Made by a program: the position numbers and the translations under genes | NCBI RefSeq assembly: GCF_036507355.1 | Contig: NZ_AP027877.1 | Reading direction: 5' to 3' (one strand) | DNA length: 64,000 nt | Source: Escherichia coli | GTDB taxonomy: Bacteria; Pseudomonadota; Gammaproteobacteria; Enterobacterales; Enterobacteriaceae | Part shown: positions 6,289 to 51,656 of the stretch, piece after piece | Layout: every line of letters begins with the position of its first letter | How positions within the stretch are numbered: position 1 is the stretch's first letter | The notes under the pieces: model-generated | What the model saw: the letters and a program-made list of their open reading frames with translations, nothing else | Databases searched by the model: none | Told to the model about the DNA's origin: nothing

Positions 6289-6588
6289 ATGGCGCTTACA
6301 AAAGCTGAAATGTCAGAATATCTGTTTGATAAGCTTGGGCTTAGCAAGCGGGATGCCAAAGAACTGGTTGAACTGTTTTTCGAAGAGATCCGTCGCGCTC
6401 TGGAAAACGGCGAACAGGTGAAACTCTCTGGTTTTGGTAACTTCGATCTGCGTGATAAGAATCAACGCCCGGGACGTAACCCGAAAACGGGCGAGGATAT
6501 TCCCATTACAGCACGGCGCGTGGTGACCTTCAGACCCGGGCAGAAGTTAAAAAGCCGGGTCGAAAACGCTTCGCCCAAAGACGAGTAA
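6289..6588 (+). CDS. ihfA: Integration host factor alpha subunit
   Basis: 99-aa [52 protein letters not shown]... Confidence 0.95.
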
Positions 6589-22538: not shown

Positions 22539-23450
22539 ATGTATCAACGCTGTTTTGATAATGCCAGTGAAACGCTGTTTGTCGCCGGTAAAACGCCACG
22601 GCTTTCACGTTTTGCATTTAGCGATGATCCAAAATGGGAGTCTGGACATCACGTTCATGACAATGAAACCGAGCTGATTTACGTCAAGAAAGGGGTGGCA
22701 AGGTTTACCATCGATTCTTCGTTATATGTCGCGCATGCAGATGATATAGTGGTGATAGAACGCGGCAGGCTGCATGCGGTGGCCTCTGACGTTAACGATC
22801 CGGCAACGACGTGTACCTGTGCGCTGTACGGCTTTCAGTTTCAGGGGGCTGAGGAAAATCATCTACTGCAACCGCATTCTTGTCCGGTAATTGCCGCGGG
22901 GCAGGGAAAAGAAGTCATTAAAACCTTATTTAATGAGCTAAGTGTGATTTTGCCGCAAAGTAAAAATAGCCAAACATCTTCGTTATGGGATGCATTTACC
23001 TATACATTAGCAATTCTTTACTACGAAAACTTTAAAAATGCTTATCGTTCGGAGCAGGGGTATATTAAAAAAGATGTTCTGATAAAAGATATTCTTTTCT
23101 ATCTGAATAATAATTATCGCGAAAAAATCACTTTAGAACAGTTATCGAAAAAATTTCGTGCCAGCGTCAGTTATATTTGCCATGAATTTACCAAAGAGTA
23201 TCGTATTTCCCCAATTAACTATGTTATTCAACGGCGTATGACGGAAGCAAAATGGTTACTCACTAATACTGAATTATCACAGGCAGAGATCTCCTGGCGT
23301 GTGGGTTATGAAAATGTCGATCACTTTGGCAAACTGTTTTTGCGCCATGTCGGCTGTTCACCCAGCGATTACCGCAGGCAATTTAAAAACTGTTTTGCGG
23401 AACAAGAAATCCTATCTGAATTTCCTCAACCGGTAAGTCTTGTTGGATAA
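22539..23450 (+). CDS. ydiP: AraC/XylS-family transcriptional regulator
   Basis: 303 aa with C-terminal AraC-type HTH; divergent from ydiQ. Confidence 0.85.
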   Translation: MYQRCFDNASETLFVAGKTPRLSRFAFSDDPKWESGHHVHDNETELIYVKKGVARFTIDSSLYVAHADDIVVIERGRLHAVASDVNDPATTCTCALYGFQFQGAEENHLLQPHSCPVIAAGQGKEVIKTLFNELSVILPQSKNSQTSSLWDAFTYTLAILYYENFKNAYRSEQGYIKKDVLIKDILFYLNNNYREKITLEQLSKKFRASVSYICHEFTKEYRISPINYVIQRRMTEAKWLLTNTELSQAEISWRVGYENVDHFGKLFLRHVGCSPSDYRRQFKNCFAEQEILSEFPQPVSLVG

Positions 23451-35839: not shown

Positions 35840-36015
35840 CAATGAGATACCTAATTCTTAGCGTGCCTGTTAACCCACACATCAGGGTCTATGCTTATTA
35901 AAAGCAGGCAAAAAGCATGTTTTACGGTAAAGCCCCTGCGTTTGCTGGGTTGAACTGATAATCATTATCACTAACATGCTGTTATACGCTGAAAGCGATG
36001 AAGTGAGGTAAATCG

Positions 36016-36384
36016 ATGGACATGCATTCAGGAACCTTTAATCCACAGGATTTCGTCTGGCAGGGCTTAACGCTGACACCCGCAGCGGCGATACACATCC
36101 GCGAGCTGGTGGCAAAACAGCCAGGTATGGTCGGCGTGCGCTTAGGTGTGAAGCAAACGGGCTGCGCGGGCTTTGGCTATGTGCTCGACAGTGTTAGCGA
36201 GCCGGACAAAGACGATCTGCTGTTTGAACACGACGGCGCGAAGCTGTTTGTCCCGCTGCAAGCGATGCCGTTTATTGATGGCACGGAAGTCGATTTCGTT
36301 CGTGAAGGACTTAATCAGATATTCAAATTTCACAACCCTAAAGCCCAGAATGAATGTGGCTGTGGCGAAAGCTTTGGGGTATAG
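36016..36384 (+). CDS. sufA: Fe-S cluster A-type carrier
   Basis: 122 aa with C-terminal CGCGESF motif. Confidence 0.93.
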
Positions 36385-45470: not shown

Positions 45471-45710
45471 CCATTCAGGATGAGGCGGTAAGCTTCATCC
45501 TGATATTCTTGCTTCAGTTGCGGTCCAGTTAATCATTCTAAATAACAACTGCTGAAATTATACGAATTTCGGTATGTATTTTAATTTATAGCGATAATGT
45601 TATTTTTATTTTCTGCAATGAACGTCACAAATAATTGTCGCTTAAGTTAAATTTATTTCAAATGATAATAAATATCAGTTCACTTATAATTTCTTGCTTT
45701 GTAATTTTAA

Positions 45711-45724
45711 TTGATAACGATCAA
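45711..45724 (+). promoter_or_regulatory. Consensus FNR box upstream of ydhY
   Basis: TTGATAACGATCAA is a perfect TTGAT-N4-ATCAA, about 200 bp upstream of the ydhY ATG. Confidence 0.75.
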
Positions 45725-45925
45725 TGTTAAGGGCTCAGAATAATCACATTATTTTTTCTCCTAACCATAAAGGATTAGTTTATCGGCGTTAAATCTTTTC
45801 TCATACACTATCAGGTTAGGGAAAATATCTGGTGTTGAGGACAGAGTCAGCAGCGTATTAGTTGAATGCTTAATATCAGTCTGCTGAATTGTCAGCACTG
45901 TGTTTGCGAAGAGGATGCGAAATAA

Positions 45926-48675
<2,750 letters not shown>

Positions 48676-48678
48676 GGA

Positions 48679-49326
48679 ATGGGTAAGATGAACCATCAGG
48701 ATGAATTGCCGTTAGCGAAAGTCAGCGAAGTTGACGAGGCGAAGCGGCAATGGTTGCAGGGGATGCGTCACCCCGTTGATACGGTAACCGAACCAGAACC
48801 GGCTGAAATCCTGGCAGAGTTCATTCGCCAGCATTCTGTGGCTGGGCAGCTGGTGGCGCGCGCCGTGTTTCTCTCGCCACCCTATTCAGTTGCAGAAGAG
48901 GAACTGTCAGTTTTGCTGGAAAGCATTAAGCAGAACGGAGACTACGCGGATATCGCTTGTATGACGGGAAGTCAGGATGATTACTATTACTCAACGCAGG
49001 CCATGAGTGAAAACTACGCGGCGATGTCTTTGCAAGTTGTGGAGCAGGACATTTGTCGCGCCATTGCACACGCCGTTCGTTTTGAGTGCCAGACGTATCC
49101 TCGTCCTTACAAAGTCGCCATGCTGATGCAAGCGCCATATTACTTCCAGGAAGCGCAGATTGAAGCCGCGATCGCCGCGATGGATGTTGCACCTGAATAT
49201 GCCGATATACGGCAGGTGGAGTCATCGACGGCGGTGTTGTACTTGTTTAGCGAGCGATTTATGACCTATGGCAAGGCTTATGGCTTATGCGAATGGTTCG
49301 AGGTAGAGCAGTTTCAGAACCCCTGA
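48679..49326 (+). CDS. ydhW: Protein of unknown function
   Basis: 215 aa; position and sequence within the ydhY-T cluster. Confidence 0.8.
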   Translation: MGKMNHQDELPLAKVSEVDEAKRQWLQGMRHPVDTVTEPEPAEILAEFIRQHSVAGQLVARAVFLSPPYSVAEEELSVLLESIKQNGDYADIACMTGSQDDYYYSTQAMSENYAAMSLQVVEQDICRAIAHAVRFECQTYPRPYKVAMLMQAPYYFQEAQIEAAIAAMDVAPEYADIRQVESSTAVLYLFSERFMTYGKAYGLCEWFEVEQFQNP

Positions 49327-49389
49327 AATTTCAGGGAGATGTCATGGATAGGGTGGACAGTTGCAGCCACTGCATTAGGGGATAATCAG

Positions 49390-50058
49390 ATGTCCTTCAC
49401 TCGACGCAAATTTGTTCTGGGGATGGGAACAGTAATCTTTTTTACTGGTTCTGCGTCTTCTCTGTTAGCGAACACGAGGCAAGAAAAGGAAGTTCGGTAT
49501 GCCATGATTCATGACGAGTCACGGTGCAATGGCTGTAATATTTGCGCCCGCGCATGCCGTAAAACTAACCACGTCCCCGCTCAGGGAAGCCGTTTATCGA
49601 TAGCACACATTCCAGTCACCGATAACGACAACGAAACGCAGTATCACTTTTTTCGCCAGTCATGTCAGCACTGCGAAGATGCTCCGTGCATCGACGTATG
49701 CCCGACAGGGGCGTCGTGGCGTGATGAGCAGGGGATCGTGCGGGTAGAAAAATCGCAGTGCATCGGCTGCAGTTATTGCATTGGCGCTTGTCCGTACCAG
49801 GTTCGCTACCTTAACCCTGTCACTAAAGTGGCAGATAAATGTGATTTCTGCGCTGAGTCCCGACTGGCAAAAGGCTTTCCGCCCATTTGCGTCAGCGCCT
49901 GCCCGGAACACGCATTGATCTTTGGTCGCGAAGATAGCCCAGAAATTCAGGCGTGGTTGCAGGATAATAAATACTATCAATATCAGCTACCTGGTGCCGG
50001 GAAACCGCATCTGTATCGCCGGTTCGGTCAACATTTGATTAAAAAGGAAAATGTATGA
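49390..50058 (+). CDS. ydhX: Tat-exported 4Fe-4S ferredoxin-like protein
   Basis: 222 aa from MSFTRRKFVLGMGT... (twin-arginine-like signal) with four Cys clusters; track ORF extends 17 codons upstream. Confidence 0.85.
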   Translation: MSFTRRKFVLGMGTVIFFTGSASSLLANTRQEKEVRYAMIHDESRCNGCNICARACRKTNHVPAQGSRLSIAHIPVTDNDNETQYHFFRQSCQHCEDAPCIDVCPTGASWRDEQGIVRVEKSQCIGCSYCIGACPYQVRYLNPVTKVADKCDFCAESRLAKGFPPICVSACPEHALIFGREDSPEIQAWLQDNKYYQYQLPGAGKPHLYRRFGQHLIKKENV

Positions 50059-50840
50059 ACCCGTCGCAACATGCTGAACAGTTTCAGAGCCAGTTAGCGA
50101 ACTATGTGCCACAGTTCACTCCCGAATTTTGGCCGGTGTGGTTGATCATTGCCGGAGTATTGCTGGTTGGGATGTGGTTGGTGCTGGGGCTGCACGCCTT
50201 GCTTCGTGCTCGTGGCGTGAAGAAATCAGCCACCGATCATGGTGAGAAGATTTATCTTTACAGCAAAGCGGTCAGATTATGGCACTGGTCGAATGCGTTA
50301 CTCTTTGTATTGTTGCTGGCAAGTGGGCTGATAAATCACTTTGCGATGGTGGGCGCAACTGCGGTTAAAAGTCTGGTTGCGGTGCATGAAGTTTGCGGAT
50401 TTTTGTTACTGGCATGCTGGCTCGGCTTTGTGCTGATCAATGCCGTTGGGGATAATGGTCACCACTATCGCATTCGTCGTCAGGGGTGGCTGGAACGAGC
50501 GGCAAAACAAACGCGATTTTATTTGTTTGGCATTATGCAGGGGGAAGAACATCCTTTCCCGGCAACAACCCAGTCTAAATTTAATCCCTTACAGCAGGTC
50601 GCCTATGTTGGTGTCATGTATGGATTGCTGCCGTTGTTACTATTGACGGGGCTGCTGTGTCTCTATCCGCAAGCCGTGGGAGATGTGTTTCCTGGCGTTA
50701 GATACTGGTTATTGCAGGCGCATTTTGCTCTGGCATTTATAAGCCTCTTTTTTATCTTCGGTCATCTTTATCTTTGCACCACGGGGCGTACGCCACACGA
50801 AACCTTTAAAAGCATGGTCGATGGCTATCACCGGCACTAA
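50055..50840 (+). CDS. ydhU: Membrane cytochrome b-like subunit (PhsC-like)
   Basis: 261-aa polytopic membrane protein; 4-bp overlap with ydhX. Confidence 0.85.
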   Translation: MNPSQHAEQFQSQLANYVPQFTPEFWPVWLIIAGVLLVGMWLVLGLHALLRARGVKKSATDHGEKIYLYSKAVRLWHWSNALLFVLLLASGLINHFAMVGATAVKSLVAVHEVCGFLLLACWLGFVLINAVGDNGHHYRIRRQGWLERAAKQTRFYLFGIMQGEEHPFPATTQSKFNPLQQVAYVGVMYGLLPLLLLTGLLCLYPQAVGDVFPGVRYWLLQAHFALAFISLFFIFGHLYLCTTGRTPHETFKSMVDGYHRH

Positions 50841-50843
50841 CGA

Positions 50844-51656
50844 ATGATCATTACACGAGCAGACCTGCGAGAATGGCGTATCGGAGCGGTGATGTATCGC
50901 TGGTTCCTGCGCCATTTCCCACGCGGCGGTAGTTATGCCGATATTCATCATGCACTGATTGAGGAAGGATATACGGACTGGGCGGAGAGTCTTGTTGAGT
51001 ATGCGTGGAAAAAATGGCTGGCTGATGAAAACTTCGCGCATCAGGAAGTTTCCTCTATGCAAAAACTGGCCACAGACCCCGGAGAGATACCATTTTGCAG
51101 TCAGTTTGCCCGCAGCGACGATCATGCTCGCATCGGCTGTTGTGAGGATAACGCCCGAATCGCAACCGCTGGGTATGCCGCGCAAATTGCGAGTATGGGT
51201 TATAGCGTGCGGATTGGAAGTGTCGGCTTTAACAGTCACATTGGCAGCTCCGGTGAACGCGCACGGGTTGCTGTAACCGGTAATTCTTCGCGGATAAGCA
51301 GCGCTGGAGATAGTAGTCGGATTGCGAATACCGGAATGCGAGTACGCGTTTGTACATTGGGTGAACGATGTCATGTCGCCAGTAATGGTGACCTGGTGCA
51401 AATCGCCAGCTTTGGCGCAAACGCCAGAATTGCCAACAGCGGCGACAATGTACACATCATTGCCAGCGGTGAAAATTCAACGGTAGTGAGCACGGGCGTG
51501 GTCGACTCAATTATTCTCGGGCCAGGGGGCAGCGCCGCACTGGCATATCATGACGGCGAAAGAGTTCGCTTCGCCGTCGCCATTGAAGGTGAAAACAATA
51601 TTCGAGCCGGAGTCCGCTATCGTCTTAATGAACAGCATCAGTTTGTTGAGTGCTGA
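50844..51656 (+). CDS. ydhT: Repeat protein of unknown function (last gene of ydhYVWXUT)
   Basis: 270 aa; the C-terminal two thirds consist of nonapeptide tandem repeats. Confidence 0.85.
   Translation: MIITRADLREWRIGAVMYRWFLRHFPRGGSYADIHHALIEEGYTDWAESLVEYAWKKWLADENFAHQEVSSMQKLATDPGEIPFCSQFARSDDHARIGCCEDNARIATAGYAAQIASMGYSVRIGSVGFNSHIGSSGERARVAVTGNSSRISSAGDSSRIANTGMRVRVCTLGERCHVASNGDLVQIASFGANARIANSGDNVHIIASGENSTVVSTGVVDSIILGPGGSAALAYHDGERVRFAVAIEGENNIRAGVRYRLNEQHQFVEC

Follow-up and report, generated by a model that had tools for sequence, protein, structure and literature searches.

A perfect FNR box upstream of ydhYVWXUT in Escherichia coli: very probable class II operator with conserved candidate sites for further regulators

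The FNR box at positions 45711-45724 of the window, the whole stretch of 64,000 nucleotides that was analysed, is almost certainly the operator through which FNR controls the class II promoter of ydhY in Escherichia coli. FNR is an oxygen sensor, and ydhYVWXUT is an oxidoreductase operon. The FNR site of the ydhY promoter is already characterised, and the finding is correct rather than new. That a reader with access to the sequence only recognised both a characterised FNR operator and its long leader provides a calibration point, and leaves the knowledge of E. coli unchanged. To this, our analysis adds the sequence identity with the K-12 site, the spacing between the box and the -10 hexamer, and a comparison of four genera in which the arrangement is conserved. 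What is mildly new is how Fur, FNR and NarL/NarP sites, possibly joined by CRP, are laid out across genera. This architecture is testable, and would bring signals of oxygen, iron and nitrate together on an operon whose physiological role is poorly defined.

The box reads TTGATAACGATCAA on the plus strand, exactly where the original prediction had placed it, and matches TTGAT-N4-ATCAA at all 10 of its 10 half-site positions. It sits inside a 16-bp palindrome, ATTGAT-AACG-ATCAAT (ATTGATAACGATCAAT). A pattern search identified it as the only perfect TTGAT-N4-ATCAA in the whole 64 kb window, in agreement with the claim of a perfect palindrome. The distance to ydhY and the base composition had also been read correctly. 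From the centre of the box (45717.5) downstream to the ydhY ATG (45926) the distance is 208.5 bp, where about 200 bp had been given, and the surroundings are indeed AT-rich, with a G+C content of 32.5% across the fumD-ydhY intergenic region (45471-45925).

A palindrome of this kind could be a chance occurrence in AT-rich DNA, devoid of any regulatory role. Dinucleotide-preserving shuffles of the window contained a mean of 0.06 perfect boxes, and at least one box arose in 6 of 100 shuffles. A perfect box is thus mildly unlikely from composition alone, and its significance comes from its position. Further, a perfect consensus is not in itself sufficient for FNR binding, because Table S6 of Myers et al. 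2013 (PLoS Genet 9:e1003565; PMC3688515) contains several perfect K-12 boxes that lack a ChIP peak, for example within sucC, ybcM, purU and yehB. At ydhY, however, FNR binding in vivo, FNR-dependent expression of the operon, and the retention of the half-sites over four genera while spacer and flanks vary together make chance an exceedingly improbable explanation.

The in vivo evidence is direct. Under an FNR ChIP-seq peak at ydhY, Table S6 of Myers et al. 2013 (PMC3688515) gives the motif TTGATCGTTATCAA with a PatSer score of 14.78, and this motif is the reverse complement of the 14-mer TTGATAACGATCAA in the window. In Table 1 of the same study, ydhYVWXUT is placed in Category 1, directly activated by FNR, with one site at -42.5, and with both sigma70 occupancy and expression higher in the absence of O2; Table S8 scores the operon as 'Activated'. 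Anaerobic, FNR-dependent activation of the downstream genes, as originally proposed, is therefore established by published data. In that dataset (PMC3688515), the anaerobic sigma70 ChIP-seq signal peaks at 1752642, which is 60 bp toward ydhY from the motif coordinate (1752702), a position consistent with an FNR-dependent promoter that is far from the ATG. For prior binding evidence and for the mapped ydhY promoter, Table 1 credits Partridge et al. 2008.

These data can be transferred to the window base for base. The gene order is fumD(ydhZ)-ydhY-ydhV-ydhW-ydhX-phsC(ydhU)-ydhT, all in the same orientation, according to the RefSeq annotation of matching K-12 derivatives and E. coli genomes, which also confirms the gene identities that had been assigned to the ydhYVWXUT cluster. 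From the open reading frames and the RefSeq annotation of the matching K-12 region, the operon extends over 45926-51656 on the plus strand, with ydhY at 45926-46552. The upstream edge of the regulatory region is marked by a terminator-like hairpin at 45475-45503 on the plus strand, following the fumD stop codon (45470). The MG1655 copy of the FNR palindrome is at NC_000913.3 1754678-1754691, on the opposite strand. From about -145 to +34, the core promoter is identical in the window and MG1655, and the FNR box, -10 hexamer, Fur-like box and 7-2-7-like site of the K-12 ydhY promoter are all present in the window without a single base changed. Differences from the MG1655 intergenic region comprise one substitution at 45623 and, in the leader, a 1-nt indel and three substitutions. 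The locus is also nearly universal in the species: among 5426 complete E. coli genomes, megablast recovered the region between fumD (ydhZ) and ydhY-ydhV in 5425, and the 131-bp core promoter in 5388, with at least 95% identity in all but two.

In the canonical geometry of class II promoters, the -10 hexamer begins about 29-30 bp past the centre of the activator site. At ydhY, the hexamer CATTAT (45747-45752, plus strand) follows the FNR box by 22 bp, so that its first base is 29.5 bp from the box centre. Together with the -42.5 position in Table 1 of Myers et al., this spacing upholds the class II reading of the original prediction. CATTAT carries the key A (position 2) and the key T (position 6). 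The -35 position, which is overlapped by the FNR box, reads TGTTAA and matches the consensus at 2 of 6 bases, a poor -35 element being expected of an activator-dependent promoter. Because a box centre at -42.5 puts the inferred transcription start at 45760 on the plus strand (45759 if the centre were at -41.5), the 5' leader would run from 45760 to 45925, or about 166 nt to the ATG, and the long leader that had been anticipated is borne out. The promoter was reportedly mapped by Partridge et al. in 2008 (Microbiology 154:608), and the -42.5 value reaches our analysis second-hand.

Comparison across genera gives an independent view of the same elements. A scan for YdhY with one genome per species yielded 30 loci, from several Escherichia species, about 20 Citrobacter species, Leminorella grimontii and two Limnobaculum species, and the 29 with upstream DNA were used for the box comparison. 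The FNR box was present in 29 of 29 loci, spanning all four genera. Its half-sites were perfect in 26, from Escherichia and Citrobacter, while the other 3, from the Budviciaceae (Leminorella, Limnobaculum), had a single changed base, with ATCAC in place of ATCAA. The N4 spacer was variable (AACG 15, GACG 12, AGCG 1, GATG 1, AATG 1), and the flanks diverged. The -10 hexamer remained at a constant spacing of 22 bp, free of indels in all 29 loci; it reads CATTAT in every Escherichia and Citrobacter ydhY orthologue, and GACTAT or GATTAT in the Budviciaceae. The distance from the box centre to the ATG ranged from 141.5 to 241.5 bp, giving leaders of about 99-199 nt. This is the pattern that would be expected of a functional class II FNR promoter followed by a long leader of unconstrained length. 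Citrobacter sp. NCU1 has a second, more divergent ydhY-like locus (L025), with a perfect FNR box, TTGATAATGATCAA, at 2296-2309 and CACTAT as its -10 hexamer; at this locus the Fur-like box is degraded (3 mismatches) and the 7-2-7-like site is gone (5 mismatches).

The fixed offset of the -10 hexamer also bears on the possibility that FNR binds the box and acts mainly on another promoter, either by blocking a sigma70-like element at 45662-45690, whose start near 45697 would leave the box at around +20, or by driving a divergent transcript antisense to fumD. The sigma70-like element (ATGATA-17-TATAAT, plus strand) matches at 10 of 12 positions, more than any other promoter-like sequence of the region, and TATAAG on the minus strand (45688-45683) would put the box at -41.5. 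However, neither TATAAT nor TATAAG is conserved even in other Escherichia, which have TTTAAT or ATTAAT, whereas the CATTAT downstream of the box keeps its place and varies only in the Budviciaceae and in the second Citrobacter NCU1 copy. Moreover, the published data describe activation and not repression, and the minus strand offers no gene for such a transcript to serve. We consider it very unlikely that FNR acts chiefly elsewhere, and we rejected a divergent or upstream promoter that uses the FNR box, the -10-like sequences concerned being specific to E. coli.

The sigma70-like element at 45662-45690, whose TATAAT is E. coli-specific, overlaps the Fur-like box, and could yield a transcript that is independent of FNR. 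It might explain the sigmaS-preferring in vitro transcription of the ydhY promoter region that has been described (PMC3141248), the passages concerned making no mention of FNR.

Another member of the CRP/FNR family, such as CRP or YeiL, might use the site instead of FNR. Related palindromes are common to the family, and a CRP-like site does lie further upstream. Nevertheless, the core TTGAT-N4-ATCAA is specific to FNR, the preference of CRP being for TGTGA-N6-TCACA, and both the FNR-specific ChIP signal and the fnr-dependent transcriptome point to FNR, leaving a substitute regulator with a negligible chance of being the true occupant.

The DNA around the box contains further candidate sites, one of which is for Fur. 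A Fur-box-like palindrome, TGATAATAAATATCA, at 45663-45677 (centre -90) matches the 7-1-7 motif TGATAAT-N-ATTATCA at 13 of 14 positions, and 14 of 19 positions of the 19-mer Fur consensus GATAATGATAATCATTATC are matched at 45658-45677. A 7-1-7 match with at most one mismatch was found in 0.05% of shuffles, and the window has only two, one near ydhY and the other upstream of sufA. The box upstream of sufA, TGATAATCATTATCA at 35956-35970, is a perfect 7-1-7 match about 46-60 bp ahead of the sufA ORF (36016-36384), and presumably corresponds to the Fur site already known at the suf promoter. Across the four genera, the Fur-like box of ydhY keeps a fixed offset of about 47.5-48 bp from the FNR box, on its upstream side. 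Of the 28 loci whose upstream DNA reaches far enough, 26, Budviciaceae among them, have no more than two mismatches.

Regulation by Fur is documented in strain CFT073, where Banerjee et al. 2020 (PMC7157518) reported a Fur ChIP-seq peak at ydhY with a height of 54.65. In the same study, ydhY expression relative to wild type was 0.07 in the fur mutant, a 14-fold drop, as compared with 1.0 in the ryhB mutant and 0.11 in the fur ryhB double mutant. These data indicate that Fur is a direct, positive and RyhB-independent regulator of ydhY. The CFT073 Fur peak has its maximum (1910890) 18 bp from the Fur-like box; its distance to the FNR box is 65 bp. The Fur-2 iModulon likewise includes ydhY and ydhV. 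In the literature examined, published work on Fur at ydhY covers the dependence and the ChIP peak; it does not describe the operator itself, nor how this is spaced or conserved.

As to how Fur might activate, the ftnA promoter offers a parallel. At ftnA, in work attributed to Nandal et al. in 2010, Fur is said to relieve silencing by H-NS. The ftnA and ydhY promoters are alike in that Fur acts positively and independently of RyhB, and its ChIP peak lies on the upstream side of the core promoter. The setting of ydhY is comparable, being an AT-rich 'promoter island', as which the fumD-ydhY spacer (45471-45925) has been listed (PMC3661553), and one where FNR occupancy rises upon deletion of hns and stpA. 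Specifically, the FNR ChIP-chip signal at ydhY increased significantly, from 0.29 to 1.82, in the hns stpA double mutant (Myers et al. 2013, PMC3688515), which points to partial silencing of the ydhY promoter by H-NS. Against the likeness, Table S6 of that study (PMC3688515) records no enrichment of H-NS, IHF or Fis over the ydhY FNR site. On the strength of the hns stpA effect and the Fur data, Fur may work at ydhY by opposing H-NS, by analogy with ftnA.

The original prediction had also hinted at narL and narP, and had suggested that a nearby inverted repeat might be a second regulator site. Regulation of the operon by NarL and NarP is indeed published, as stated in the title of Partridge et al. 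2008, but the conserved candidate sites lie elsewhere than the suggested repeat. A NarL/NarP-like 7-2-7 site, TAACCAT-AA-AGGATTA, occupies 45762-45777 on the plus strand, with its centre at about +10 and 2 mismatches in 14 to TACYYMT-NN-AKRRGTA. Matches as good as that of ydhY were found in 1.5% of shuffles. At the same position, Limnobaculum has TACCCCC-TT-AGAGGTA or TACCCAC-TT-AGAGGTA, each with 1 mismatch. Because the site stands at the same offset in all lineages and is closer to consensus in Limnobaculum, its place appears to have been conserved while its sequence has turned over. We infer from these alignments that 45762-45777 is a candidate NarL/NarP operator. The ydhY promoter contains no exact NarL heptamer TACYYMT, of which the window has 30 in total against 29.8 by chance, and heptamers with one mismatch do occur there.

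The suggested second site, GAAATTATACGAATTTC at 45554-45570, has 6-bp arms around a 5-nt spacer. Its arms are intact in CFT073, but in the closest clade one arm is changed and the arms are down to 5 bp, and they are broken in E. whittamii, in the divergent SCPM-O-B-8794 (labelled E. coli), and in Escherichia sp. E1V33. None of the Citrobacter loci compared has the repeat. In the fumD-ydhY spacer, 5 inverted repeats are perfect over arms of 6 bp or more, as against 2.2 +/- 1.9 in shuffles, 12% of which reach 5. We therefore rejected GAAATTATACGAATTTC as a regulator site, since outside E. coli and the clade closest to it the repeat is lost, and repeats of this kind occur at chance level. The cross-genus footprint separates this repeat from neighbours that appear to be under selection, namely the Fur-like, 7-2-7-like and CRP-like sites.

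The CRP-like site, TGCAATGAACGTCACA at 45614-45629 (centre -138.5), matches TGTGA-N6-TCACA at 8 of 10 positions. These two mismatches are found in Escherichia, while 17 of 29 loci, of the Citrobacter type, have one (9/10), with TGCGA, TGGGA, TGTGA or TGAGA preceding N6-TCACA. A match with at most one mismatch occurred in 0.45% of shuffles, and one with at most two in 8%. The distance between the CRP-like and FNR centres is 96 bp in Escherichia and about 106 bp in most Citrobacter (103-108 overall), and the two genera thus differ by roughly one helical turn. A literature search for CRP control of ydhY found no report. The CRP-like site is a tentative candidate, weaker than the Fur-like and 7-2-7-like ones.

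Two comparisons place this arrangement among known FNR-activated promoters. At narG, NarL co-activates together with FNR, whereas ydhY is nitrate-repressed. The FNR site of the narG promoter is the identical 14-mer, TTGATCGTTATCAA, spacer included (Myers Table S6, coordinate 1278982). Also comparable to ydhY are dmsA and frdA, both class II, FNR-activated and NarL-repressed, which share with it an FNR site near -41.5 over the -35 position, a weak -10 hexamer, and nitrate repression via NarL. Unlike dmsA and frdA, ydhY has a perfect consensus box and a long leader (about 166 nt), is under the positive control of Fur, and, according to the title of Partridge et al., is also controlled by NarP.

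The following sequence of events accounts for these features. Without oxygen, a dimer of [4Fe-4S] FNR binds 45711-45724, overlapping the -35 position, and from there brings sigma70 RNA polymerase to CATTAT (45747-45752), the weak -10 hexamer. Transcription would proceed from about 45760 through a leader of ~166 nt and then into ydhYVWXUT. In the presence of nitrate or nitrite, NarL and NarP repress, most likely in part via the 7-2-7-like site at +10, and Fur raises expression, most likely via the Fur-like box at -90 and possibly by countering H-NS. We infer the bases that NarL/NarP and Fur contact, as well as the manner in which Fur activates.

More speculatively, and with rather less than even confidence, we suggest that the ydhY control region might be an ancient composite switch that predates the split between Enterobacteriaceae and Budviciaceae. 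Such a switch would hold Fur at -90, FNR at -42.5 and NarL/NarP at +10 in fixed spacing, with a CRP-like site displaced by one helical turn between Escherichia and Citrobacter, and with Fur as a direct co-activator or an anti-H-NS factor. If this were true, the operon would fire only when the cell is anoxic, replete in iron and free of nitrate.

The leader downstream of the promoter does not behave as a structured RNA, and we rejected that possibility on three grounds. It belongs to no Rfam family, its sole match being a meaningless miRNA (E = 0.74); its fold is unexceptional, with an MFE z-score of -1.1; and its alignment, at -7.6 kcal/mol in RNAalifold, contains no compensatory pairs or covariation. 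Three blocks of the leader are conserved: +1 to +19, which overlaps the 7-2-7-like site; +52 to +67, ATCAGGTTAGGGAAAA; and the last ~45 nt, including the Shine-Dalgarno region. The GGTTAGG of the second block (45811-45826; ATCnGGTTAGGgcAAAA) is the reverse complement of the 5'-terminal CCTAACC (45760-45766), and RNAalifold pairs the block with ydhY codons 2-4 (45929-45937) instead. Neither pairing is supported, covariation being absent. Because the 5' arm overlaps the 7-2-7-like site, the conservation of CCTAACC and GGTTAGG is not attributable to RNA structure. Small ORFs in the leader were likewise rejected, given that the candidates start upstream of the inferred +1 or lie on the wrong strand.

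Elsewhere in the window are four more FNR-like boxes with one mismatch, at 6452, 25153, 25486 and 37711 (GTGATAAGAATCAA, GTGATAAAAATCAA, TTGATCCGGATCGA and TTGGTGAAGATCAA, respectively). Strict colinearity between the window and K-12 is absent upstream of about 30 kb. At 22674-22687 on the minus strand, TTGACGTAAATCAG resembles, by sequence only and with one extra mismatch, the FNR-bound K-12 ydiP/ydiQ site TTGACGTAAATCAA (Myers Table S6).
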